A stretch of 32,919 nucleotides of DNA from a virus (IMGVR_UViG_2778261314_000004), one strand, 5' to 3'; shown: positions 1-26,945, counted from the first letter of the stretch. Notes: generated by a model from the sequence alone, not told the origin. Numbers and translations are program-made.

Positions 1-1053
1 TTACGGGGTAATGCCAACCGCTGCCGCCACTTTGTCGCCACTTGGCAGCGTTGCCAGAGGATTGAAACGGAGCGCCGTTTCCAGATGATCCGGTGCTAGA
101 TGTGCGTAACGCATCGTCATTTTTATATCGTGGTGTCCGAGAATTTTTTGTAAGGCCAGAATGTTTCCACCCGACATCATGAAGTGCGCCGCAAACGTAT
201 GGCGCAGAACGTGTGTGAGTTGACCGCGAGGGAGCACGATAGACGTTTTTTCCATCACGGATAAAAATTGAAAATAGCAGTCTGTGAAGAAATTGAACCC
301 ATCAAGCGCCATGATCTCTTCGTAAAGCTCTTTACTGATAGGGATGCTTCTGTTTTTCTTCCCTTTCGTTCTGACAAAGGTAATTCGGTATTTGGTCACC
401 TGTGAGCGGGTAAGATTTACGGCTTCACGCCAGCGTGCGCCTGTGCTTAAGCATATCTTAACTACCAGTGCCAGAATTGGGTCCTGACGTTTGCAATCAG
501 CCAGCAATTCAACAATCTGCTCATGGGTAAGCCATGCCATCTCTTTTTCTGCGATGGTGAATTTTCGCATGTTCTCCAGTGGGTTCGGATACGACCATTC
601 GCCCAGACGGGATAGTTCGCTAAAAACACTACTTAGATAGCTTTGCTCCAGGTTAATGGTGACCGGGCTGGCTCCTTTCTTCCATTTCTCGCTGAAGTAG
701 ATCTCACCTGTCAGTCGTTTATCTCGATAATGGGCAAACATTTTAGATGTGAGATCGGTTGCAAGGGGATTGCCCAGAGCGTCAACCATCAGCAGCAATT
801 TGTCATAGACATGCTGCCCAGCAGTCAGAGATTTACCATGTAGTTTGAACCATAGTTCAACCACGTCTTTCAGTGTTCGACGATCCACTGATTCACCCAG
901 CCAGGGCTTTGCTTCGGTTTCTTCCATCGTGTGGCGCTCAAAAGCCAGAGCTTCGCCTTTGGTGGCGAATTGTTTACGCACACGACGCCCACTGCGTCCG
1001 GCGGGGTAACATTCGCAAAGCCATTTTCCTGTGGTGAGTTTTCGTACTGCCAT
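1..1053 (-). CDS. int: Tyrosine integrase (P2/186-family), 350 aa
   Basis: Full minus-strand ORF whose stop codon is the first triplet of the window. C-terminal region has tyrosine-recombinase signature residues (LSTGARWREA; HVLRHTFAAH...RYAHL). Sits at the prophage end next to the repressor operon. Confidence 0.9.
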   Translation of the reverse strand: MAVRKLTTGKWLCECYPAGRSGRRVRKQFATKGEALAFERHTMEETEAKPWLGESVDRRTLKDVVELWFKLHGKSLTAGQHVYDKLLLMVDALGNPLATDLTSKMFAHYRDKRLTGEIYFSEKWKKGASPVTINLEQSYLSSVFSELSRLGEWSYPNPLENMRKFTIAEKEMAWLTHEQIVELLADCKRQDPILALVVKICLSTGARWREAVNLTRSQVTKYRITFVRTKGKKNRSIPISKELYEEIMALDGFNFFTDCYFQFLSVMEKTSIVLPRGQLTHVLRHTFAAHFMMSGGNILALQKILGHHDIKMTMRYAHLAPDHLETALRFNPLATLPSGDKVAAAVGITP

Positions 1054-1131: not shown

Positions 1132-1515
1132 TCATAAGTACCGATATGATTGCGGGGCCGTTATGTTATCACCTAATGAACTTAGATGAAGCGGTTGATC
1201 ATAGATTTTTAGATTGCCAATTTCTATAGCAAAGGCTTTTTCTTTGCTATGAAAATATGAGTCAAAAAATTGTTTGCTGATACCTGCGTATTGGCTTGTT
1301 TTTTCCCATACAATACTTGGCTTGTCTTCTATAACATCTGCAATGTCAAATTCAGCAACAACTTTACCGACAGGCATTGTTGAATAAATAACCACAGATT
1401 TTACATCCGGTTTTTTGAAAATTCCTTTTCGGAATTCAAATTTCTTTGTTCCATTAAGGATTTTTTCTACATGCTCTGGGTTAATTGACAATAATACTTT
1501 CATTGACGCCACCAA
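1132..1515 (-). CDS. Standalone ASCH-domain (PUA-like fold) protein, ~123-127 aa; alternative start at 1503
   Basis: Translation MKVLLSINPEHVEKILNGTKKFEFRKG...VVIYSTMPVGKVVAEFDIADV...AFAIEIGNLKIYDQP follows the pattern I recall for ASCH family proteins. AT-rich codon usage. Overlaps the upstream gene by 23-35 nt. Confidence 0.7.
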   Translation of the reverse strand: MVASMKVLLSINPEHVEKILNGTKKFEFRKGIFKKPDVKSVVIYSTMPVGKVVAEFDIADVIEDKPSIVWEKTSQYAGISKQFFDSYFHSKEKAFAIEIGNLKIYDQPLHLSSLGDNITAPQSYRYL

Positions 1516-2551
1516 GTTTAATAATGCTATTAAACTGTTCGTTTGTTAACTTCATGATCCCCCAGTAAGCTCGCGGGGATAATCCTACTTCAGAAATAAG
1601 TTTAGCACGATTTAGTCTTTTGGGCAAAGCAAGGTTATATGTAAAGCTTATAATATATGGGTATTTTTTTGTTCTATAAAAACTTTTAAGCTCAGATTCT
1701 GTAAAAACAGAATATCTAGAACAGTAATTTAGAAATTCTTTCTCTGTAACGAAAGAGTTTATATTTCTAACTTTTTCTACTACACATAAAGAAGTAGCAA
1801 CAGAACGGTAATATGCAGGCCCTTGATTATCGGATGTTCGGTATATAACGATTATATCGTTTGGCTTCATTAATTCAACATCTGACATGCCACAAATATA
1901 TACTTTTCTAATGCTATTTGCATATGATACATCAGCAACAACATCTGGTGACTCTGTAATTAATTTTGAGTCAGGGAATAAACGAGTATGAAATACGGGG
2001 TATATTGAAAGCAAGAATTTATTTTCACTGCCTCTGTTATTAATAAATGGATAATCTGACAGTATATCGCCCGTAAGAGCATTACTATTCATTTCTTTTA
2101 TTAGTACTCGCTCTACACCATTTTCAGATTCTTTTACTCCAATATCTATAAAGCCATAGATTTTGAATAGTCTAATTAAGTAGTCATGTTTTTCAAAAAC
2201 AGTCACATATATATTGTTAGCATTATTATCTAGAGCGTGATCGAATATTTTTTTTAAAAATCGTTGACCACGAAGAGTTCCTTTTGGATTAAATTTAAAT
2301 GTTCCAACTTTTAGATGAATACCATCAGGAATATTTGGTTTTGTATCTTCAATGATACCTACTTCTGTTTTTAGATACAAAAAACCATCAATTTTATTTT
2401 GTTCATCATAAAGGACATATGCATAATCATTTGATTTACATTTAGAATGGAACCAATCAATAAACCCATGAGCATAATCGGATTTTAAAGAGTCAAAAAA
2501 AACATCAGAAAAATCTACTTGATTAAAAGGTATGTATTTTAAGTTTTCCAT
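1481..2551 (-). CDS. Two-domain protein: N-terminal GNAT-like acetyltransferase fold (degenerate), C-terminal ASCH/PUA-like domain, 356 aa
   Basis: Long ORF in the AT-rich island. N-terminal half has GNAT-like secondary-structure rhythm (HLKVGTFKFNPKGTLRGQRFLKKIFDHALDNNANNIYVTVFE...LFKIYGFIDIG). C-terminal half resembles the ASCH pattern (IIVIYRTSD...SLCVVEKVRNI...FTESELKSFY...YIISFTYNLALPKRL). Start codon lies 2 nt after the stop of the upstream gene. Domain calls are by eye only. Confidence 0.55.
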   Translation of the reverse strand: MENLKYIPFNQVDFSDVFFDSLKSDYAHGFIDWFHSKCKSNDYAYVLYDEQNKIDGFLYLKTEVGIIEDTKPNIPDGIHLKVGTFKFNPKGTLRGQRFLKKIFDHALDNNANNIYVTVFEKHDYLIRLFKIYGFIDIGVKESENGVERVLIKEMNSNALTGDILSDYPFINNRGSENKFLLSIYPVFHTRLFPDSKLITESPDVVADVSYANSIRKVYICGMSDVELMKPNDIIVIYRTSDNQGPAYYRSVATSLCVVEKVRNINSFVTEKEFLNYCSRYSVFTESELKSFYRTKKYPYIISFTYNLALPKRLNRAKLISEVGLSPRAYWGIMKLTNEQFNSIIKLGGVNESIIVN

Positions 2552-2553
2552 GT

Positions 2554-3336
2554 TTACAATCCTATTTTAAAATCACATGATAAGCAAATTGATTTAGTTT
2601 TAGATATGACGGCGAGTGTTTTCCCCGGAGTTTGACAATTAGTACAAACATTCCAATTTTTCGGTTTTCCATCAATCTTATATATGTTGGCTAAAATATC
2701 ATCTAAAGGAAAAAATGTTTTCATCATGTCTATAATGCTTGCTGCATAGTTTTTCTTTGCCTCGACTAATTTTTGTTCAGGCATGTTTTTATCATTTATC
2801 AAGCAATGAACCAGGTTATTAAGAGGCTCTTGATATATCTCCTCTCGAAAAATTAGAAATGCACTTAAAAAGTCTTTACGTATTTCTTTATTATTACTTT
2901 TACCTAAGTGAATTACTTTATTTCTTTCTTTGCGCAAAATATCATAAATTTCATTAAAGCGCGGTGAAAGATTTCGCCCACTGATACTTTGTGCTATTCT
3001 ATGTAGCTCGGTTGCGTCTAATGTTGAACATTCGAAAAATGATTTGTTTTTATAGCAGTCTTTTACTTCTTTTAAAAGTAAATAAACACTATGCTCAGCA
3101 ATTATAGACTTTAGATATATTTCAGCAGAATTAAAGAGTATTACTAAGCCAGATTGAAAGAAACTCTCTTTTTCGGATATTAAGCGTTTCAGTCGTTGTT
3201 CTTCTGTTTCAGGTTGAGCTGGGGCTTGCAATAACTCAATGTCAGAATAAAAGTGTAAGTAGAATGTTTTAATGAAAAACTCAAGGTTCCTTTTGGCATA
3301 AAGAAGCATCTCTTCATTGTTAGGAAGGTCTGTCAT
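2554..3336 (-). CDS. HEPN-like protein (R-N-x3-H motif) with C-terminal CxxC...CxxC zinc ribbon, 260 aa
   Basis: ORF start ATG directly abuts the cI stop codon (TAA-ATG at 3334-3339) with AAGGA Shine-Dalgarno inside the cI 3' end. Contains LRKERNKVIHLG, matching the Rx4-6H HEPN catalytic motif. C-terminus has CTNCQ...CLSCDF. AT-rich. Confidence 0.5.
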   Translation of the reverse strand: MTDLPNNEEMLLYAKRNLEFFIKTFYLHFYSDIELLQAPAQPETEEQRLKRLISEKESFFQSGLVILFNSAEIYLKSIIAEHSVYLLLKEVKDCYKNKSFFECSTLDATELHRIAQSISGRNLSPRFNEIYDILRKERNKVIHLGKSNNKEIRKDFLSAFLIFREEIYQEPLNNLVHCLINDKNMPEQKLVEAKKNYAASIIDMMKTFFPLDDILANIYKIDGKPKNWNVCTNCQTPGKTLAVISKTKSICLSCDFKIGL

Positions 3337-4293
3337 TTAAATATCCTTATATATACCAAAACATTTTGCTATTACATTAATATCCGCTAATAGACATTCA
3401 AAAGTTGTACTTTCATTAGATACTTTTACTTTTGCAATTGGAATTCTGGTTAGATCTCTAACACTAAATTTTCCTTCGATTTCAACTAACCATTTTCCAT
3501 CGGTTACTTCATCAAATGCTTTGTCTGCAAGATATACATTTCCTTCATCTACTATAGATATGGGGTTTTTCACCTTGCTGGGTAACATGGTTTTATCAAA
3601 AGGGAGATAATTTGTATCAAACAACATACCATTTATAACTTTTTTCCGTGTGATAGCAATAATATCGCTCTTAGCGTCTTCAAAGACGGGACCATTACCG
3701 GTTGTTAGCCACATTAATGAAGCTCCGGTTTCAAGTGCGCACTGGATGATCCAATCAGCTGGAAAGGTATCTCTCATGTAACGATTGGCTAATGTGCTTT
3801 TTGAAACACCAATGTGATCCGCTAGAGCTTGCCTTGTCTTAAATCCATAGGCGATAACTATTCGCTCGATTGCCGCTTTTCCTCCTTGATTAACCTCAAT
3901 GAGGCTCTCGTTCTTTCGGTGAGTATTGTTCTCATTTGGGGATTTTGTGTCTAAAGTGAGAGAATGAATCTCCTTACCATCTTTATGGTGGTTCTGTTCT
4001 GTATTATGTGTGACAGCCTCTACTGTGTTATCGGTACCAAATGCCAACCATTCAACCGACACGCCAGTTTCCATGCTGCAGATTATGACCCAGTCGGCAG
4101 GGAAGGTATCACGAGCATATCTGTTCGCCATTGTGCTTTGGGATATCCCTAAGTGGTTACAGAATGCTTGACGTGAAGTGAAGCCATAAGCTTTCAAAAT
4201 TCGGTCAATGACCTGTTGCCCTCCACGATTCTGCATGATTACAGTTTTCATTGCATCATCAACATGGCGAAATGTGATTTTGTGTGTTGACAT
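3337..4293 (-). CDS. cI: 186-type CI immunity repressor with tandemly duplicated N-terminal HTH domain, 318 aa
   Basis: Two successive copies of an HTH module (RILKAYGFTSRQAFCNHLGISQSTMANRYARDTFPADWVIICSMETGVSVEWLAFG and RIVIAYGFKTRQALADHIGVSKSTLANRYMRDTFPADWIIQCALETGASLMWLTTG) followed by a C-terminal domain. Lies divergent from an apl/cII pair, as in phage 186. Confidence 0.8.
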   Translation of the reverse strand: MSTHKITFRHVDDAMKTVIMQNRGGQQVIDRILKAYGFTSRQAFCNHLGISQSTMANRYARDTFPADWVIICSMETGVSVEWLAFGTDNTVEAVTHNTEQNHHKDGKEIHSLTLDTKSPNENNTHRKNESLIEVNQGGKAAIERIVIAYGFKTRQALADHIGVSKSTLANRYMRDTFPADWIIQCALETGASLMWLTTGNGPVFEDAKSDIIAITRKKVINGMLFDTNYLPFDKTMLPSKVKNPISIVDEGNVYLADKAFDEVTDGKWLVEIEGKFSVRDLTRIPIAKVKVSNESTTFECLLADINVIAKCFGIYKDI

Positions 4294-12227: not shown

Positions 12228-13990
12228 AAAATCTCCACAATATTGCTGGTATTGGCGGATTCGCCCTGCAGCGGTTCGTTAAACAGTGCGTGCATCGTTG
12301 CCCAAGCCAGATCGGCGTGGCTGGCTTCTTCGCTGCGGCTGGCTTCATAGGTCGGGCGGTTGCCACTGGCGGTGGTGGCGCGACGGATTGCCATGAATGA
12401 CTGCGCAATGTCGGTGTGCCCGGCGTCAAACTCCAGACGGCGGTGGCTGATAATGTCGTAGGCCTTGAGTACCAGGGCGTTTTTAACGTTGGGGTTGTAG
12501 ACAAACTCCCGGACGGCAGGAAAGAACGCTTTCACGTTCTCATAAACCCCGTGACCAACGCCGGTTGAGTCGATACCGATGTATGTCACGTTGTACTGTT
12601 CAGTCAGTTTTTTGATGGCGTTAGCCTGGGCGCGGAAGTCCATCCCGCGCCACTGGTGACGCTCAAGAATGCGGAACTTACCGCCCGGCACGGCTGGCGG
12701 TGCCACCACCACGCACCCGGCGCTGTCGCCGTTTTGCGTACCTTTTGCCGGGTCATAACCGATCCACACTTCGCGCCAGCCAAACGGGCGCAGGGCCAGT
12801 GCATGAAAGTCGGTCCAGACTTCCCAACTGTCCACCATGCACGCCTGCAGCTCGCTGAGCGGGAACACGGACGCGAGATCGTCAACAAACTCGCACATCA
12901 GCAGGTTCTGGTATTCGTCCGGGCTGTACTCCAAGCGTAGCTGGTCGAGGTCGAACAGGTTACAGCCGCCGCGCACCGCATCTTCCACGGTGACTATCTG
13001 GCGGTATTGCCCGTCTGCGCACAGCAGGCCGGGGGCCAGATTGCTGTGGGACAGGTCGATGTCCACCTTATCGGCTTTGTTGCGCCCACGGTTGAACAGC
13101 GCACCGGACCAGAACGGATAAGCACTGTGTGTCAGGCTGGATGGCGTGGAAAAATAGGTTTGTCGCCATTTTTTGTGAATAGCCATACCGGAAGCCACTT
13201 TGCGCAGCTCCTGGAATTTCGGTATCCAGAAATATTCATCCAGATACAGGTTGCCGTGGTAACTCTGGGCCGTGCGGGCATTGGTGCCGAGGAAATACAG
13301 TGTGGCTCCGTTAGGAAGCACCATCGGATCGCCTTTCAGCTCCACCTCGACTTCTTTGGCGAAGTCGATGATGTACTGTTTAAAGACGTGAGCCTGTGCC
13401 TTACTGGCAGAAAGGAAAATCTGGTTACGTCCGGTAAGCAGGGCGTCAATCAGGGCTTCACGGGCAAAGTAAAAGGTCGCACCGATCTGGCGTGACTTCA
13501 GCAGGTTGCGGATGCGGTTGGTTTTTCCGGCTTCCCACCAGTGGCGCTGGTAGTTGAACATGGAGGAATGGAAGATTTCTTCCAGCTTCTCAATCTGTTC
13601 ATCGGTGAAAACATTCTTTTCCGGCTGACGGCGCGGGCCTTTGTTGCGGTTGGCGACGTTAGGGTTTAAGTCGGCTTCGTTGCCGCCATTGTTAAACTTG
13701 CCGATCCGCGCATGGCGCTCCGACTGGCGCGCCAGCAGGTCAATTTCTTTAAAGTCTTTCCCTTCTTTGTGCTCCTTCATGATGAGCTGGCAGTAGCGTG
13801 CGGCGGTGGTGAGCTGCATCTGATCCAGCGGCCCATAGTCACCCCACTTGTCGCGTTTTTTCCAGCTGTGAACGGTTGCAACTTTCTCGCCCAGCATTTC
13901 AGCAATGCGGGCTACGCGGTATCCCTGAAAGTACAGCAGCATGGCCTGTCGACGGGGATCGAGATCTGCGGGTGTCAGTGTGGTGTTCAT
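12224..13990 (-). CDS. P: Terminase large (ATPase) subunit (P2 gpP family), 588 aa
   Basis: Size and position match P2 P. Divergent from the O-N-M-L late operon. Confidence 0.9.
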   Translation of the reverse strand: MNTTLTPADLDPRRQAMLLYFQGYRVARIAEMLGEKVATVHSWKKRDKWGDYGPLDQMQLTTAARYCQLIMKEHKEGKDFKEIDLLARQSERHARIGKFNNGGNEADLNPNVANRNKGPRRQPEKNVFTDEQIEKLEEIFHSSMFNYQRHWWEAGKTNRIRNLLKSRQIGATFYFAREALIDALLTGRNQIFLSASKAQAHVFKQYIIDFAKEVEVELKGDPMVLPNGATLYFLGTNARTAQSYHGNLYLDEYFWIPKFQELRKVASGMAIHKKWRQTYFSTPSSLTHSAYPFWSGALFNRGRNKADKVDIDLSHSNLAPGLLCADGQYRQIVTVEDAVRGGCNLFDLDQLRLEYSPDEYQNLLMCEFVDDLASVFPLSELQACMVDSWEVWTDFHALALRPFGWREVWIGYDPAKGTQNGDSAGCVVVAPPAVPGGKFRILERHQWRGMDFRAQANAIKKLTEQYNVTYIGIDSTGVGHGVYENVKAFFPAVREFVYNPNVKNALVLKAYDIISHRRLEFDAGHTDIAQSFMAIRRATTASGNRPTYEASRSEEASHADLAWATMHALFNEPLQGESANTSNIVEIF

Positions 13991-14036
13991 GGCACAAACC
14001 TACAGCCTTGAATGACGGCTTTCCCCGCCTGCGGTT

Positions 14037-14054
14037 TGTGTGGTTGTCGGTACA
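14037..14054. promoter_or_regulatory. Ogr/Delta-type late-promoter activator site TGT-N12-ACA in the divergent P/O promoter region
   Basis: tgtgtggttgtcggtaca lies about 80 bp upstream of the O start codon in the P-O intergenic region, as expected for P2 late promoters. Confidence 0.55.
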
Positions 14055-19940: not shown

Positions 19941-19945
19941 TCTTT

Positions 19946-19963
19946 GTATCAGCACTGATACAA
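19946..19963 (+). promoter_or_regulatory. Ogr-type late-promoter activator site TGT-N12-ACA upstream of V (pV)
   Basis: tgtatcagcactgataca, an extended palindrome, about 55 bp upstream of the V start codon. Confidence 0.55.
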
Positions 19964-20943: not shown

Positions 20944-21838
20944 CCTTTCGCAGTTGCCTGCGCCGCAGATTGTGGATGTGCCGGACTTTGAGACGCTGCT
21001 TGCCGAACGCAAGGCAGAATTTGTGGCGCTTCATCCGAAAGATGAGCAGGAAGCAGTGATCCGCACGCTGGAACTGGAATCTGAACCCGTCACCAAATTG
21101 TTGCAGGAGAACGCTTACCGTGAGTTGCTTCTGCGCCAGCGCATTAACGAAGCCGCGCAGGCGGTGATGGTGGCTTACGCGATGGGCGGCGATCTGGACC
21201 AGCTAGCTGCCAACTACAACGTGAAACGCCTGACGGTGACGCCTGCTGATGATGACGCTGTGCCGCCCGTTGCAGCTGTGATGGAAAGCGATGAAGCGTT
21301 ACGCCTGCGTGTGCCTGCGGCTTTTGAAGGGCTTTCGGTTGCGGGGCCAACCGCAGCTTATGAATTTCATGCCCGAAGCGCCGACGGTCGGGTGGCGGAT
21401 GCCAGTGCAACCAGCCCGGCACCTGCAGAGGTGGTGCTGACTGTCCTTAGCCGCGAAGGCGATGGAACTGCAGAAAAAGACCTGCTGGACGTGGTGGAAA
21501 AAGCTCTGAACAGTGAGAACGTTCGCCCGGTGGCTGACCGTCTTACGGTTCGCAGCGCAGAAATCATCCCGTATCGCGTGGAAGCCACCATTTTTCTCTA
21601 TCCGGGACCGGAAGCAGAGCCGGTAATGGCAGCGGCAAAAGCCAGTCTGCAGAAGTACATTGCCAGCCAGACGAGGCTTGGTCGGGATATTCGCCGTAGC
21701 GCCATCTTTGCTGCTCTGCATGTTGAGGGTGTTCAACGTGTGGAACTGGCTTCTCCGCTGGCGGATGTGGTCCTGAACAAAACACAGGCGGCATCATGTA
21801 CGCAGTGGAGCGTAACCAACGGAGGAACGGATGAATAG
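20930..21838 (+). CDS. J: Baseplate assembly protein (P2 gpJ family), ~302 aa
   Basis: Start at internal ATG (MAVIDLSQLPAPQI). Size matches P2 J. Confidence 0.85.
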   Translation: MAVIDLSQLPAPQIVDVPDFETLLAERKAEFVALHPKDEQEAVIRTLELESEPVTKLLQENAYRELLLRQRINEAAQAVMVAYAMGGDLDQLAANYNVKRLTVTPADDDAVPPVAAVMESDEALRLRVPAAFEGLSVAGPTAAYEFHARSADGRVADASATSPAPAEVVLTVLSREGDGTAEKDLLDVVEKALNSENVRPVADRLTVRSAEIIPYRVEATIFLYPGPEAEPVMAAAKASLQKYIASQTRLGRDIRRSAIFAALHVEGVQRVELASPLADVVLNKTQAASCTQWSVTNGGTDE

Positions 21839-22436
21839 TCTGCTGCCACTGGGTTCAACTTCACTGGAGCGCCGACTGGCGCAAACCTGTAGCGGGATTT
21901 CTGATTTGCAGGTGCCGCTGCGTGACTTGTGGAATCCGGCTACCTGTCCGGTCAGCTTCCTGCCTTATCTCGCCTGGGCGTTCTCTGTGGATCGCTGGGA
22001 CGAGGGCTGGACAGAAAGCGTCAAACGCCAGGTAGTGAAGGATGCTTTTTATATTCATCAGCATAAAGGAACCACCAGTGCCGTGCGGCGGGTGGTGGAA
22101 CCGTTCGGATTCCTGATCCGCATTATTGAGTGGTGGCAGACCGGAGAAACACCGGGCACGTTTCGCCTGGATATCGGCGTGCAGGACCAGGGCATCACTG
22201 AAGATACCTATCTGGAACTTGAGCGACTGATAAGCGATGCCAAACCATGTAGCCGCCACATGATCGGCATGTCCATCAATCTGCAGACCAGCGGCCCGCA
22301 TTGGGTGGGAGCCGCCAGCTATCTTGGCGAAGAAATCACGATCTATCCGTATATCAACGAAACGATTATTTCCGGTGGCACCGCGCATGAAGGCGGGGCG
22401 GTCCATGTTATTGACACAATGAGAGTGAATCCATGA
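21831..22436 (+). CDS. I: Baseplate / tail formation protein (P2 gpI family), 201 aa
   Basis: Position between J and the tail-fibre gene. Confidence 0.8.
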   Translation: MNSLLPLGSTSLERRLAQTCSGISDLQVPLRDLWNPATCPVSFLPYLAWAFSVDRWDEGWTESVKRQVVKDAFYIHQHKGTTSAVRRVVEPFGFLIRIIEWWQTGETPGTFRLDIGVQDQGITEDTYLELERLISDAKPCSRHMIGMSINLQTSGPHWVGAASYLGEEITIYPYINETIISGGTAHEGGAVHVIDTMRVNP

Positions 22437-23860
22437 GCACAAAATTTTATACCCTGCTGACGGATATTGGCGCGGCGAAACTTGCCAGCGCCGCCGCGCT
22501 CGGTGTGCCGCTAAAAATTACCCATATGGCGGTGGGCGATGGCGGTGGAGTATTGCCAACGCCGGACGCAAAGCAGACGGCACTGGTAAATGAGAAACGC
22601 CGGGCTGCGCTGAATATGCTTTATATCGACCCGCAGAACAGCAGCCAGATTATTGCCGAACAGGTGATCCCTGAAAACGAGGGCGGTTGGTGGATACGTG
22701 AAGTGGGCTTGTTTGATGAGTCCGGGGCATTGATTGCCGTGGGCAACTGCCCGGAAAGCTATAAGCCGCAACTGGCTGAAGGTAGCGGGCGCACTCAGAC
22801 CGTGCGCATGGTGCTGATTACCAGCAGCACGGACAATATCACCCTGAAAATCGACCCTGCTGTAGTGCTGGCAACCCGCAAGTATGTGGATGACAAGGCA
22901 CTGGAGCTGAAGGTGTACGCGGATGATCAGATGGCAAAACATCTTGCCGCACCGGACCCGCATTCACAGTACGCGCCAAAAGCCAGCCCGACATTTACCG
23001 GAACCCCCAAAGCGCCAACGCCAGCGGCGGGGAATAATACCACGCAGGTTGCGACCACTGCGTTTGTACAGGCGGCACTGACGGCCCTTATTAATGGTGC
23101 GCCAGCCACGCTGGACACGCTGAAAGAAATAGCCGCAGCCATTAACAATGATCCGAATTTCAGTACCACCATTAACAATGCGCTGGCACTAAAAGCACCG
23201 TTGTCGAGTCCGGCACTCACCGGAACGCCAACAGCCCCCACGGCGGCGCAGTCGGTCAACAATACACAGATTGCCACTACGGCTTTTGTGAAATCGGCGA
23301 TTGCAGGAATGGTGGGTTCTGCACCTGCTGCACTGGATACACTGAACGAACTGGCGGCGGCACTGGGGAATGATCCGAACTTTGCCACGACAATGCTTAA
23401 TGCGCTGGCAGGTAAACAACCGCTGGACAATACGCTTACCAATTTGAGTGGAAAGGATGTAGCTGGTCTTCTCGCATACCTTGGTTTGGGAGATATCAGT
23501 GCCGCAGGTGTTGCGACAGGTAGTCTTGGTTCAGCGGGATACGCCACATTCCCAATATTAATTAGCGGTGTCCGCCAGACGTTTATTATGCAATGGGGAA
23601 TACTGACACCTCTGAGATCAGGCGGCACTGTGGATATTAATCTGCCGATTGCTTTTCCGACTGCCGCGATGCAGGCATATGCAACACATGATAATACAAC
23701 GCAGATCACCCGCCCGACGGTGTATGCAATAAGTACAACGAGCCGAACCACTATCACTGCTACAGCAATCTGTCTTAATACTGAGTCAGTGGGCGCGGCA
23801 GCAACGCGCAGTAGTGACGAGGTAGCATGTTACGGCCGATATTTTGTAATAGGGTACTGA
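22433..23860 (+). CDS. H: Tail fibre protein (P2 gpH family) with invertible C-terminal variable segment, 475 aa
   Basis: N-terminus MSTKFYTLLTDIGAAKLA...MAVGDGGG and collar repeats (SPALTGTPTAPT...NNTQIATTAFV...LDTLNELAAALGNDPNFATTM) are typical of P2 H-like fibres. A crossover site lies at codons ~346-354. Confidence 0.85.
   Translation: MSTKFYTLLTDIGAAKLASAAALGVPLKITHMAVGDGGGVLPTPDAKQTALVNEKRRAALNMLYIDPQNSSQIIAEQVIPENEGGWWIREVGLFDESGALIAVGNCPESYKPQLAEGSGRTQTVRMVLITSSTDNITLKIDPAVVLATRKYVDDKALELKVYADDQMAKHLAAPDPHSQYAPKASPTFTGTPKAPTPAAGNNTTQVATTAFVQAALTALINGAPATLDTLKEIAAAINNDPNFSTTINNALALKAPLSSPALTGTPTAPTAAQSVNNTQIATTAFVKSAIAGMVGSAPAALDTLNELAAALGNDPNFATTMLNALAGKQPLDNTLTNLSGKDVAGLLAYLGLGDISAAGVATGSLGSAGYATFPILISGVRQTFIMQWGILTPLRSGGTVDINLPIAFPTAAMQAYATHDNTTQITRPTVYAISTTSRTTITATAICLNTESVGAAATRSSDEVACYGRYFVIGY
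23469..23494 (+). repeat. Inversion crossover site 1 (hix/gix/cix-like, 26 bp) inside the tail-fibre gene
   Basis: ttctcgcatacc-tt-ggtttgggagat: 12-2-12 architecture resembling hix (TTCTTGAAAACC-AA-GGTTTTTGATAA). Its right half is repeated in inverted orientation at 24983-24994. Confidence 0.6.
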
Positions 23861-23861
23861 A

Positions 23862-24296
23862 ATGAATATGAAATATTTCTCTGCATCTGAAAATGCGTTT
23901 TATGCCGGAGAGCTTAAAGAAAGCTACATCGCAGCAGACTCATGGCCTTCTGATGCCTTGGAAGTTGATGAAAGTTTGTATCTTGATTTTATTGGTGAGC
24001 CGCCAGCAGGTAAGTATCGCGGTGTAAATGATGCAGGAATGCCATGCTGGCTTGAAATTCCCCCGACCACCCCAGAACAAATGGTATCGAATGCCCAAAA
24101 TATGCGGCAACAGCTCATTGATGAGGCCATTCTCTACATGAATAACAGGCAATGGCCCGGTAAAGCGGTGCTGGGACGTCTGACAGAAGCGGAGAAGGAG
24201 CAATACAATCTGTGGCTGGATTATCTGGGCGCACTGGAGGCTGTAGACACATCCAGCGCACCGGATATCAACTGGCCTACCCCTCCGGCGATGTAG
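23862..24296 (+). CDS. G: Tail fibre assembly chaperone (P2 gpG / Tfa family), 144 aa
   Basis: Directly follows the fibre gene. Shares the Tfa-like N-terminal pattern with the minus-strand paralogue. Confidence 0.75.
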   Translation: MNMKYFSASENAFYAGELKESYIAADSWPSDALEVDESLYLDFIGEPPAGKYRGVNDAGMPCWLEIPPTTPEQMVSNAQNMRQQLIDEAILYMNNRQWPGKAVLGRLTEAEKEQYNLWLDYLGALEAVDTSSAPDINWPTPPAM

Positions 24297-24699
24297 GCCA
24301 GATAACATCAGGAGCTGTTGATACGTCGACGGCTTTCACTGCTTTTTTATACGCCATCCACTCAGACAACCTCTCTTTGTCTTCATCACTGATATCGCCG
24401 AGCATTAATTCAACCCGCCAGTCGACGGTTACTTCGTCAATCTGCTGTAGCCGTTGCTGGCGGTATTGTTCGGCAATCTCAGTCTGTTCCTCATGTGTTG
24501 GTTGGGGAATATCTCCCCAAACTGGCAGCCCATTATCGCCAGGAATACGCATCTGGTTGGTTGGTGGTACCCCCGTAAACTCCGTAAATACAGAGTCGTC
24601 AATATCAATGCAGTCTGTTGGCCACATGCCGTTTTTTTTGTATTCGCCGCGAAGGTGTGTTGGGTAGAATTTATTTTTTAATGCGTAGTAATTGTACAT
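24277..24699 (-). CDS. Alternative tail fibre assembly chaperone (Tfa'), 140 aa, inverted orientation
   Basis: Minus-strand paralogue of the plus-strand tfa (PPTNQMRIPGDNGLPVWGDIPQPTHEEQ... versus PPAGKYRGVNDAGMPCWLEIPPTTPEQ...); convergent with it. Confidence 0.7.
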   Translation of the reverse strand: MYNYYALKNKFYPTHLRGEYKKNGMWPTDCIDIDDSVFTEFTGVPPTNQMRIPGDNGLPVWGDIPQPTHEEQTEIAEQYRQQRLQQIDEVTVDWRVELMLGDISDEDKERLSEWMAYKKAVKAVDVSTAPDVIWPTSPEG

Positions 24700-24700
24700 A

Positions 24701-24996
24701 TTAAAATCCTATTGCTATCCAGTGACAGGCATTTGAACTGGGTGAGCCGCTTTTGAATAGCGTCATGCTCTCGGGGGAGTACGAACCAACGTTAACTGTC
24801 GTTCCGGGCTGAGCGTCCCACGAGGCAAGGCCTAAAAGCAGGCCATTAGGAAACGGAACATTAAACGTTTTCGTGTACGTTGAAGCAGAAAAAAACGGGA
24901 CTACACCGATCTGGATAATCAGTGTCTTTTCACCGATTGGCAGATAAATAACGGAATCCCCGGCGTTGAGGCTTTGTAGCGTTCCTCCCAAACCAA
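24701..24996 (-). CDS. Alternative tail-fibre C-terminal segment (Sv'-like, promoterless; expressed only after inversion fuses it to H)
   Basis: Minus-strand ORF whose 5' end coincides with crossover site 2. It encodes ...GLGGTLQSLNAGDS..., sharing the GLG junction with H (AYLGLGDIS). Confidence 0.55.
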
Positions 24997-25008
24997 CGTT
25001 TAAGAAAA
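24983..25008 (-). repeat. Inversion crossover site 2 (inverted relative to site 1)
   Basis: Reverse complement reads ttttcttaaacg-tt-ggtttgggagga; the left half closely matches the hix half-site TTCTTGAAAACC and the right half matches site 1. Confidence 0.6.
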
Positions 25009-25063
25009 TGCAGAGGTAACGGCTAACTGGCATCATCCCCGGTATTTATTCAGGGGATTGATC

Positions 25064-25621
25064 ATGCTTATTGGCTATGTACGCGTGTCAACAAATGACC
25101 AGAACACCGATTTGCAACGTAATGCACTGAACTGCGCGGGATGTGAGCGGATTTTTGAGGATAAAATCAGTGGCACTAAGTCCGACAGACCGGGGCTGAA
25201 AAAACTGCTCAGGACACTATCGGCAGGAGACACGCTGGTCGTCTGGAAGCTGGACAGGTTGGGGCGCAGTATGCGGCATCTTGTTACGCTGATAGAAGAG
25301 TTGCGCCAGCGTGGCGTGAATTTCCGAAGCCTGACTGACAGTATTGATACCAGTACCCCAATGGGCCGTTTCTTTTTTCATGTCATGGGTGCCCTGGCTG
25401 AAATGGAACGCGAACTGATAGTTGAACGCACTATGGCAGGGCTGGCTGCAGCTCGTGCCAAAGGCAGAGTAGGTGGACGCCGTCCTAAGTTGACCACCGA
25501 ACAGTGGGCACAGATTGGACGTTTACTCGAGGCCGGAGAATCAAGACAGCGTATTGCACTGATTTTTGACGTGGGCGTTGCTACCATTTATAGAAAATTT
25601 CCGGCGAATAAGAGCAATTAA
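25064..25621 (+). CDS. Serine DNA invertase (Hin/Gin/Cin/Pin family), ~185 aa
   Basis: MLIGYVRVSTNDQNTDLQRNAL... with catalytic Ser in YVRVSTNDQ and a C-terminal HTH. AGGGGA Shine-Dalgarno. Adjacent to the invertible segment. Confidence 0.9.
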   Translation: MLIGYVRVSTNDQNTDLQRNALNCAGCERIFEDKISGTKSDRPGLKKLLRTLSAGDTLVVWKLDRLGRSMRHLVTLIEELRQRGVNFRSLTDSIDTSTPMGRFFFHVMGALAEMERELIVERTMAGLAAARAKGRVGGRRPKLTTEQWAQIGRLLEAGESRQRIALIFDVGVATIYRKFPANKSN

Positions 25622-25678
25622 TCGCCCTGAATCAGCATTCTTTTGATTTTTCCTGTAAGCGGACAAATACCGTCATTT

Positions 25679-25696
25679 TGTGTGAATAACGGCACA
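25679..25696 (+). promoter_or_regulatory. Ogr-type late-promoter activator site TGT-N12-ACA upstream of FI (pF)
   Basis: tgtgtgaataacggcaca, about 85 bp upstream of the FI start codon. Confidence 0.55.
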
Positions 25697-25772
25697 ACTG
25701 CGATTAGCTGTTTGTCAGGCACAATCACTTCAACATAGGGCGAAGCCTAATCCAATCAGGAGGTTTGCCACT

Positions 25773-26945
25773 ATGGCTCAGGATTACCACCACGGGGTGC
25801 GCGTTGTTGAAGTCAACGAAGGCACCCGATCCATTACCACGGTGAGCACCGCCATCGTGGGTATGGTCTGCACGGGCGATGATGCCGATGCAAAAATGTT
25901 CCCTCTTAATAAACCCGTGCTGATCACTGATGTGCTGACTGCCAGCGGTAAAGCGGGTGAGTCCGGTACTCTGGCCCGTTCGCTGGATGCCATCGCTGAC
26001 CAGGCAAAACCCGTGACTGTTGTTGTGCGTGTGCCGCAGGGTGAAACGGAAGACGAAACCACGACCAATATCATCGGCGCAGTGACCGCTGAAGGTAAAA
26101 AAACTGGCATGAAAGCCCTGTTATCTGCCCAGTCACAGCTCGGCGTTAAACCACGCATTCTGGGTGTACCTGGTCACGACACCAAGGCGGTAGCTACTGA
26201 GTTGCTGAGCGTAGCGCAAAGCCTGCGTGGGTTTGCTTACCTGTCAGCGTATGGCTGCAAGACAGTGCAGGAGGCGATCACTTACCGCGAAAACTTCAGC
26301 CAGCGCGAAGGGATGCTGATCTGGCCTGACTTTACTGGCTGGGACACGGTGCTGAATGCCGAAGCAACGGCATATGCCACCGCCCGTGCGCTTGGTCTGC
26401 GCGCCAAAATTGACGAGCAGACCGGATGGCACAAAAGCCTGTCCAACGTGGGCGTGAACGGTGTCACCGGAATTTCTGCAGATGTGTTCTGGGATCTGCA
26501 GGACCCGGCAACCGATGCAGGTCTGCTGAACCAGAACGACGTCACCACGCTTGTGCGTAAAGACGGTTTCCGCTTCTGGGGTTCCCGCTGCCTGAGTGAT
26601 GACCCGCTCTTTGCCTTCGAAAACTACACCCGCACGGCGCAGGTGCTGATGGACACGATGGCAGAAGCACACATGTGGGCGGTGGATAAACCGCTTAACC
26701 CGTCGCTGGCCCGCGACATTATCGAAGGTATCCGCGCCAAAATGCGCAGCCTGGTCAGTCAGGGCTATCTCATTGGTGGTGATTGCTGGCTGGATGAGTC
26801 GGTGAACGACAAAGACACGCTGAAAGCCGGAAAACTCACCATCGACTACGACTACACGCCAGTGCCGCCACTTGAAAACCTGATGCTGCGTCAGCGCATC
26901 ACCGATCAGTACCTGGTGAATTTCGCCAGCCAGGTCAGCGCGTAA
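25773..26945 (+). CDS. FI: Tail sheath protein (P2 gpFI family), 390 aa
   Basis: Size close to P2 FI (396 aa). Position at the start of the FI-FII-E-T-U-D operon. Confidence 0.9.

Follow-up and report, generated by a model that had tools for sequence, protein, structure and literature searches.

A very probable Gin/Cin/Pin-type DNA inversion switch in the tail-fibre operon of a P2/186-like E. coli prophage

The tail-fibre locus described here lies in a viral sequence of 32,919 nt (IMGVR_UViG_2778261314_000004), referred to below, at its full length, as the window. Judging from its sequence, the element is a complete P2/186-like E. coli prophage. The RefSeq annotation of an identical prophage follows the P2 gene order (Q P / O N M L ... 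V W J I H G FI FII E T U D ogr), running from int by way of CI, CII, Fil and the replication genes, then portal, capsid, baseplate, fibre, sheath and D, to ogr, with no pseudogenes; this prophage is inserted between rcdA and ybjL, and the nearest phage records are Peduoviridae. The P2/186-type tail module recognised in the preliminary description of this DNA thus lies in a complete prophage of this kind.

Within the tail module, the 3' part of a fibre gene, H, lies in a 1.5-kb segment bordered by two short inverted sites, and a serine DNA invertase gene follows (Table 1). Residues 1-150 of H match the Pfam Phage_tail_fib N-terminal domain (E 5e-65), while its C-terminus, hereafter tip 1, matches Gp53-like_C (E 2e-10, above the curated cut-off). 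One nucleotide past the H stop codon starts tfa-1, encoding a tail-fibre assembly chaperone (Caudo_TAP, E 8e-31; RefSeq WP_021548678.1). The minus strand of the same segment carries a second chaperone gene, tfa-2 (Caudo_TAP, E 3e-32; 36% identity to tfa-1), together with a second Gp53-like_C tip (tip 2, E 3e-7), so that all the elements previously proposed to lie between the sites, i.e., a fibre C-terminus with its tfa on one strand and an alternative pair on the other, are indeed present. The two tfa genes are convergent, the 3' end of tfa-2 overlapping tfa-1 by 20 nt. RefSeq leaves tip 2 without annotation in the window orientation.

Table 1. Coordinates of the features of the tail-fibre locus, counted from the first nucleotide of the window
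Feature	Position	Strand	Description
Tail-fibre gene H, window orientation	22433-23860	+	475 aa
Constant N-terminal part of H	22433-23482	+	353 codons common to both orientations, ending ...AYLGLG
Site L, left crossover site (cix/pix-type, 26 bp)	23469-23494	.	Within fibre gene H
Invertible segment	23483-24994	.	1512 bp, between the two central dinucleotides
Variable tip 1	23492-23860	+	122 aa, C-terminus of the 475-aa H; expressed in the window orientation
tfa-1, tail-fibre assembly chaperone of tip 1	23862-24296	+	144 aa
tfa-2, chaperone of tip 2	24277-24699	-	140 aa; silent in the window orientation
Variable tip 2	24701-24994	-	94 aa beyond the shared LGLG; promoterless and without constant part here
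Site R, right crossover site (26 bp)	24983-25008	.	Reverse complement TTTTCTTAAACG TT GGTTTGGGAGGA
Serine DNA invertase	25064-25621	+	185 aa, intact, outside the invertible segment
Cin-enhancer-homologous region	25082-25153	.	nt 19-90 of the invertase gene

Tips 1 and 2 share no significant similarity with each other. Among deposited phages (50,697 records searched by tblastn), tip 1 has distant relatives only, the best being found in Erwinia phage ENT90 (43% identity), and no match to tip 2 is present. In IMG/VR, tip 1 has relatives at 72-79% identity; the sole occurrence of tip 2 in this collection is one contig carrying the same element, and no relative of tip 2 was detected among the GTDB species-representative genomes scanned. 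When sequences of solved structures were searched, H matched a tail-collar fibre in its constant part only, and tip 2 matched nothing. The comparison with fibres of known receptor that had been suggested as a check yielded no similar characterised fibre, and the tips can therefore not be tied to a known receptor.

Both 26-bp sites lie where they had been placed, in inverted orientation and with an identical TT core. Site L reads TTCTCGCATACC TT GGTTTGGGAGAT, its central TT corresponding to positions 23481-23482; in site R, the centre appears as AA on the plus strand (24995-24996). Alignment of the two confirms the common right half-site that had been reported, with 12 nt of exact identity, TTGGTTTGGGAG, made up of GGTTTGGGAG and the central TT, while the outer half-sites are unlike at 4 of 12 positions. 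No inverted repeat of the 21500-26500 region ranks above this pair (I1, 24 nt, 79% complementary). As a bare inverted repeat it is no better than chance, since 23 of 40 shuffles of this 5-kb region contain one of 24 nt with at least 19 matches; nor is the palindromic core AAACCNNGGTTT significant when one mismatch is allowed (2 matches versus 1.04 expected). In contrast to these generic measures, the pattern TCNNAWACCNNGGTWTNNGA, derived from both P1 cix sites, matches sites L and R only in the whole 32.9 kb with at most one mismatch, and has no match in 100 shuffles. The sites are thus significant as recombination sites, though not as a plain inverted repeat. They had been likened to hix/gix sites: their assignment to the invertase type stands, but both sites and enzyme are nearer to the cix/pix (Cin/Pin) type, with its TT core, than to hix. 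The window contains two tip cassettes and, by either pattern, two sites. A multi-site, shufflon-like system, such as Min of p15B or the three-repeat P2 locus of EPEC, was considered and rejected, as there are only two sites in the whole window. Site pairs at the same position are also found in phages 500465-1, Cartapus and P2-T22 and in strain LT883142, with unlike cassettes between them.

The product of the gene adjacent to site R starts with MLIGYVRVS..., with Ser9 as the nucleophile, and comprises Pfam Resolvase (E 9e-53) and HTH_7 (E 4e-15) domains. Its end-to-end matches to the Gin structures 3UJ3 and 4M6F have E values of about 1e-92 (4e-93 for 3UJ3), against 8e-34 for the gamma-delta resolvase, and its identity is 78% to P1 Cin, the closest characterised invertase, and 75% to Mu Gin. 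Position 114 is occupied by Met, as against Val in the two Gin crystal sequences. Three residues of Hin, Gln151, Arg154 and Leu155, adjoin Fis in a model of the invertasome (PMC3798978), and Q, R and L are conserved at the aligned positions here. By its sequence, the protein belongs to the DNA invertase (Din: Hin/Gin/Cin/Pin) subfamily of small serine recombinases, whose members are about 185-195 aa long with the nucleophilic serine near position 9-10, in agreement with the serine invertase initially described. A frameshifted or truncated enzyme, which would have spoken against an active switch, is excluded: the gene is intact, and its product (WP_021548679.1) is identical in genomes of both orientations.

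Recombination by Din invertases involves an enhancer acting in cis, about 65 bp long, with a Fis site at each end, and typically located about 100 bp from one crossover site. Inversion in this subfamily depends on Fis and also on negative supercoiling. The P1 record annotates this enhancer at nt 19-90 of cin, and the corresponding region of the window invertase gene contains two putative Fis-like G-N13-C 15-mers (25085-25099 and 25134-25148). It shares 78% identity with P1 and 72% with Mu, versus 66-67% for the rest of the gene; as the same nucleotides code for the conserved N-terminal residues of the invertase, this is not independent evidence for an enhancer and could simply stem from the encoded sequence. 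The centre of site R is 96.5 nt away from that of the first 15-mer, compared with 95.5 nt in Mu, the geometry being taken from PMC3798978 and from the annotation of the P1 record. Binding of Fis to this predicted enhancer is expected from the properties of the family.

Inversion of the segment was simulated at the TT core. This gives an in-frame fibre of 447 aa, H', which has a 353-aa prefix in common with H and in which the 94-aa tip replaces the 122-aa one; tfa-2 then starts 1 nt past the H' stop codon, and the silent cassette is free of stop codons and frameshifts. The proposal that inversion swaps the tip along with its chaperone is thereby upheld. RefSeq annotates both fibre fusions, H' being WP_021548676.1 in genomes with the flipped segment. 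Among these, the E. coli WP5-W18-ESBL-11 genome (NZ_AP022120.1) reproduces the simulated inversion without a single mismatch in 6268 nt; its whole prophage differs from the window by the inversion and only 2 SNPs across 32,919 nt; the natural breakpoints map to 23481-23492, inside site L. In total, the flipped state is found in seven complete genomes and one IMG/VR contig, and the window orientation in four records, all at 100% identity. Public genomes therefore hold the locus in both orientations. The four window-orientation records all belong to one lineage, EC0880B; the EC0880B_R2 record has an IS4 insertion that is absent from the window, and is therefore not the window itself. Furthermore, a single assembly, that of strain 13TMH22, contains both orientations of a related element whose invertase is 98% identical, and the two agree without mismatch once the inversion is simulated. 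Of 5426 complete E. coli genomes, 1747 (about one third) have related loci, and as many as 6 matching places are found in a single genome; the tip 1/tip 2 pair is rare among complete E. coli genomes.

Taken together, these data make it very likely that the locus is a programmed DNA inversion switch of the Gin/Cin/Pin type in the tail-fibre operon of a P2/186-like prophage. From the invertase family, we infer both the dependence on Fis and enhancer and the chemistry of strand exchange, according to which invertase dimers would bind both 26-bp sites and a Fis-bound enhancer, situated within the first ~90 nt of the gene that encodes the invertase itself, would bring the two together. The enzyme would then cut sites L and R at their identical central TT, one pair of subunits would rotate by 180 degrees, and religation would invert the 1512-bp segment. 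In the window orientation, the fixed 353-codon part of H is joined to the 122-aa tip, followed by tfa-1, and in the opposite orientation to the unrelated 94-aa tip, followed by tfa-2.

Tail genes, here fibre and chaperone, belong to the late class when a P2-like prophage is intact. The orientation at prophage induction would therefore set the tip of the progeny, so that a lysate may contain particles with two adsorption specificities and hence a hedged host range. With the receptor of each tip unassigned, a difference in host range between the two orientations is suggested by analogy with Mu and P1.

Switches of this type are already known, as initially stated, in Mu, in P1 and in P2-like prophages of E. 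coli (PMC4272514); only the two tips are uncharacterised here. The locus is collinear with the G segment of Mu (Sc, gixL, Sv, U, inverted U', Sv', gixR, gin), where the start of the invertase gene likewise contains the enhancer-like region, at an equal distance from the nearby site, and where the chaperones are of the Pfam family found here, with 34% identity between tfa-2 and Mu U'. However, Mu is a transposable phage rather than a P2/186-like one, its G segment is about 3 kb (1.5 kb here), the constant part makes up about one third of its fibre (about three quarters here), the core of its sites is TC instead of TT, and its S and S' are unrelated to the small gp53-like tips of the window. In P1, cixL and cixR have the TT core and half-site pattern of both window sites, and the annotated Cin enhancer aligns as described above. 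P1 is made up of the same parts, but with cin at the other end of the segment with respect to the fibre gene; its C segment has other tips and a length of 4.2 kb.

The closest precedent in phage type comes from EPEC E2348/69, whose P2-like prophage loci flip within single-colony cultures (Goldberg et al., 2014, PMC4272514). One of these has the same position, between the fibre and sheath genes, an invertase 79% identical to that of the window, and a near-identical site R, TTTTCTTAAACG TT GGTTTGGGAGAA (Table S1 of PMC4272514), which is unlike that of the window at only 2 of 26 positions (24 and 25). It differs in lying within a truncated prophage remnant and in carrying other tip cassettes. Another EPEC locus, with three repeats, can adopt four states, compared with two sites in the window. 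The repeat of the e14 P segment, the substrate of Pin, is AAACCTTGGTTTGGGAGAAGG (PMC4272514), with the same core as in the window. Salmonella Hin, which belongs to the same recombinase subfamily, also uses 26-bp sites, one of which lies about 100 bp away from a Fis enhancer (PMC3798978). In that system, a promoter is flipped to switch flagellin genes, and hin is inside its invertible segment, whereas the window switch flips a coding cassette and its invertase gene is outside.

Could the switch be a fossil, with sites and invertase as inactive relics and the two orientations in databases as an old event, fixed in separate lineages? The single-lineage origin of the four window-orientation records fits this reading, as does the result of a simple consensus scan, which found no sigma-70 promoter upstream of the invertase gene. 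We nonetheless consider it highly unlikely, as copies in opposite orientation are only 2 SNPs apart in 32.9 kb, both states have one and the same intact invertase ORF, the silent cassette has kept its reading frames, the close relative in 13TMH22 has both states in one assembly and the homologous EPEC locus flips in culture.

Din invertases can stand in for one another. The segment might thus be inverted by an agent other than the adjacent enzyme, for instance by a Din invertase of another prophage acting in trans, such as e14 Pin. In K-12, for example, the P segment of e14 is inverted by PinQ, which the Qin prophage encodes (PMC12529663), and the abundance of related loci in E. coli genomes would provide further candidates. 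Nevertheless, this, RecA-dependent recombination or an assembly artefact are extremely unlikely explanations: the junctions fall exactly within the cix-pattern site pair, the cis-encoded enzyme is intact, and complementation in trans would be the same mechanism carried out by a paralogue; the 12 nt of exact identity are far short of what efficient RecA recombination needs, and the same flipped state in eight independent assemblies argues against an artefact.

Beyond the programmed inversion switch itself, a more far-reaching reading would be that both gp53-like tips recognise receptors new to phages and that the switch might have a further role in the lysogen, which we regard as very unlikely. 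A conserved ATG-initiated ORF (MMPVSRYLCIFLNVGLG...) runs across site R into the silent tip; by analogy with e14, where PinQ and StfE2 are reported to mask a receptor against other phages (PMC12529663), this read-through ORF could give a free tip protein with such a masking function. The product is a predicted one, and an intact P2-like prophage expresses its tail genes late.

These results add nothing new on how inversion switches operate, but bear on how such loci are read. For annotation, the fibre gene has two legitimate 3' ends, one of which is captured arbitrarily by any given assembly, and the promoterless tip is readily missed or mislabelled. For host-range prediction and for the engineering of P2-like phages or tailocins, the 1.5-kb segment should be treated as a two-state cassette. 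Finally, as relatives hold other cassettes between the same sites, the conserved site pair constitutes a natural exchange point for modules of tip and chaperone.

The genes of the tail-fibre locus are listed with other features of the prophage in the table below. According to Pfam, the product of the tail-fibre gene H combines a Phage_tail_fib N-terminal domain with a Gp53-like_C tip (tip 1), and the Gp53-like_C domain is also found in a promoterless frame of the minus strand, corresponding to the silent tip (tip 2). Both chaperones, Tfa-1 and Tfa-2, are Caudo_TAP proteins, and the recombinase carries Resolvase and HTH_7 domains. The 3' ends of tfa-1 and tfa-2 overlap by 20 nt (24277-24296; about 29 nt in relatives), and there is therefore no intergenic spacer in the middle of the invertible segment. 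Of note, an ATG-initiated minus-strand frame, M(M)PVSRYLCIFLNVGLG... (24701-25036), begins in the interval separating the invertase gene from site R and continues via this site into the silent tip. Its N-terminal peptide is kept in relatives with different tips (L006, L007, and L009, the latter being NZ_LT883142.1), and fragments like this frame are sometimes annotated as "gp53-like domain-containing protein" in RefSeq.

Features of the tail-fibre locus and of the prophage around it (locus genes from the ORF list and raw sequence)
Feature	Position	Strand	Length
int	1-1053	-	
CI repressor gene	3337-4236	-	
TGT-N12-ACA dyad	13979-13996		
TGT-N12-ACA dyad	14037-14054		
TGT-N12-ACA dyad	19945-19962		
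Tail-fibre gene H	22433-23860	+	475 aa
Site L	23469-23494		26 bp
tfa-1, chaperone gene	23862-24296	+	144 aa
tfa-2, chaperone gene, convergent with tfa-1	24277-24699	-	140 aa
Open frame without constant fibre part (promoterless)	24701-24994	-	
Site R	24983-25008		26 bp
Recombinase (invertase) gene	25064-25621	+	185 aa
TGT-N12-ACA dyad	25679-25696		

The preliminary description had placed two inverted 26-bp sites at this locus, and was correct in both their coordinates and their description: the pairing of 23469-23492 with 24985-25008 is the top inverted repeat of the region and, read in the same sense, the sites (TTCTCGCATACC TT GGTTTGGGAGAT and TTTTCTTAAACG TT GGTTTGGGAGGA) have 12 exact bases in common, including the central TT. 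As a bare inverted repeat this pair is not above chance, since 23 out of 40 shuffled versions of the 5-kb region also contain one with at least 19 of 24 matches; nor are the two matches to the short core AAACCNNGGTTT significant with one mismatch allowed (1.04 expected). It is the agreement of the sites with characterised ones that marks them as real, namely with cixL (CAATCCTAAACC TT GGTTTAAGAGAA) and cixR (TTATCCAATACC TT GGTTTAAGAGAA) from the P1 record, and gix (TTATCCAAAACC TC GGTTTACAGGAA) from the Mu record. The degenerate pattern TCNNAWACCNNGGTWTNNGA, which cixL and cixR both satisfy, matches only these two sites in the 32.9 kb when up to one mismatch is allowed, and has no match in 100 shuffles.

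Inversion was simulated by reverse-complementing 23483-24994, i.e., the DNA between the two central dinucleotides. H then stays in frame, with residues 1-353 (ending ...AYLGLG) kept and the 122-aa tip replaced by one of 94 aa, giving a 447-aa fibre, H'. The tfa-2 start falls 1 nt past the new stop, as that of tfa-1 does in the window. The chaperones are 36% identical, and the two tips have no BLASTP-detectable similarity.

Both orientations exist in sequenced genomes. When 5,426 complete E. coli genomes were searched by megablast with 22433-25700, four records, all derived from EC0880B, were identical to the window, and others matched at 100% in both flanks only. Among the latter, NZ_AP022120.1 (WP5-W18-ESBL-11) reproduces the simulated inversion without a mismatch over 6268 nt. 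Used in turn as query, this sequence retrieved the flipped state at 100% identity in seven genomes (WP5-W18-ESBL-11, CFS3313, MEI008, Eco_70239, and three pig isolates), and one IMG/VR metagenomic contig also carries it. Over the 32,919-nt prophage, only the inversion and two SNPs separate the WP5-W18-ESBL-11 copy from the window; by comparison with point mutation, the flip is thus very recent. Strain 13TMH22 has a related element that shares the site pair and whose invertase is 98% identical to that of the window; its assembly contains this element twice, on the chromosome and in a circular record of 36 kb (NZ_CP019256.1; NZ_CP019257.1, p13TMH22-1). Over 4204 nt the inversion between the sites is the sole difference between these copies, and the circular "plasmid" may instead be a phage genome that has excised. 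Separately, the EC0880B_R2 genome (NZ_OX460335.1) matches the window at 100% and additionally contains an IS4, absent from the window, next to int (~1063-1074), where a 12-nt overlap of two BLAST segments looks like a target duplication; the window was therefore not taken from this very record.

With sites that match the cix-derived pattern, frames that hold, and both orientations found in genomes, the inversion-switch reading of the preliminary description is supported, and the locus is very probably a programmed inversion switch of the tail-fibre tip.

Among solved structures, the invertase gives full-length alignments to Mu Gin (3UJ3, E 4e-93) that far outscore those to resolvases, and its sequence identity is 78% with P1 Cin and 75% with Mu Gin. 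It has Ser9, and Met at residue 114; the two Gin crystal sequences carry Val at the latter position, presumably an engineered activating change. No sigma-70 promoter for the gene was detected by a promoter scan. In the P1 record, nt 19-90 of cin are annotated as the Cin enhancer; the equivalent stretch here (25082-25153) has 78% identity with P1 and 72% with Mu, against 66-67% for the rest of the gene, a conservation that is not independent evidence because the same DNA encodes a conserved protein segment. It contains two Fis-like G-N13-C 15-mers, the first lying 96.5 nt from the centre of site R (95.5 nt in Mu), which fits the distance of roughly 100 bp given for Hin (PMC3798978). In the invertasome model, Hin residues Gln151, Arg154, and Leu155 adjoin Fis (PMC3798978), and their aligned counterparts in this invertase are Q, R, and L. 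Judging from these sequence features, inversion is likely to be Fis-dependent.

This type of switch is already known. The parts follow exactly the order seen in the Mu G segment and its invertase Gin, and the P1 C segment with Cin is built from the same set, except that cin is on the opposite side. In P2-like E. coli prophages, invertible tail-fibre segments have been documented experimentally, and in EPEC E2348/69 the orientations coexist in single-colony cultures at two P2-like loci (Goldberg et al., PMC4272514). At one EPEC locus (NC_011601.1, 2977580-2979467), site R differs from that of the window at 2 of 26 positions and the invertase is 79% identical. Surveys have also reported an enrichment of genes for tail fibres, phage tail protein I, and tail-fibre assembly at programmed inversions (PMC9881135), and DNA invertases have been reported at the P2 fibre hotspot (bioRxiv 2024.10.15.618418). 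A multi-site inversion system is rejected here, as the window has two sites only.

The window constitutes a whole P2/186-type prophage, int to ogr, between rcdA and ybjL, with full head, tail, and lysis gene sets and no pseudogenes. The four tabulated dyads lie at the P2 late-promoter places, in the divergent region of Q and O and ahead of V and of the sheath gene FI, the last just past the invertase gene. Since TGT-N12-ACA occurs 8 times in the window, against 8.8 by chance, it is their placement alone that is suggestive of late promoters. The placement assigns both H and tfa to the late V-W-J-I-H operon, and the tip would therefore be set by the orientation at induction. Between int and CI, two genes (1132-2551, minus strand) match PDC-M11, a PADLOC candidate anti-phage system (M11A, 356 aa, E 2e-130; M11B, 123 aa, E 5e-48, with an ASCH domain as well), and a third (2554-3336, minus strand) has a weak DUF3644 match; this stretch resembles defence cargo at a hotspot of P2-type phages.

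Matches to the conserved flanks occur in 1747 of the 5426 complete E. coli genomes (about one third). Phages 500465-1, Cartapus, and P2-T22, as well as strain LT883142, have both sites in the places where the window has them, with different tip/chaperone cassettes; the sites being kept while cassettes vary, the segment that they bound thus acts as an exchangeable module. NZ_LT883142.1 demonstrates an exchange of single cassettes among elements, at the conserved sites: its invertase protein is identical to that of the window, and it has a tip-1-like fibre end (74% identity) and a tfa-1-like chaperone (79%), whereas its second cassette, consisting of a tfaE-type chaperone with another tip, is wholly different.

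As had been proposed, the tips were compared with fibres whose receptors are known, and no informative match resulted. Tip 1 has only distant relatives in deposited phages (best, Erwinia phage ENT90, 43% identity) and closer ones in a few IMG/VR contigs (72-79%). Tip 2 has none in deposited phages or GTDB representative genomes and is found in IMG/VR in the same element only; neither tip has a sequence match among solved structures. By analogy with PinQ and StfE2 (PMC12529663), the switch could, speculatively, have a role on the lysogen side. What might be mildly novel in this prophage is limited to the receptors of its two rare tips and to such a lysogen-side role.
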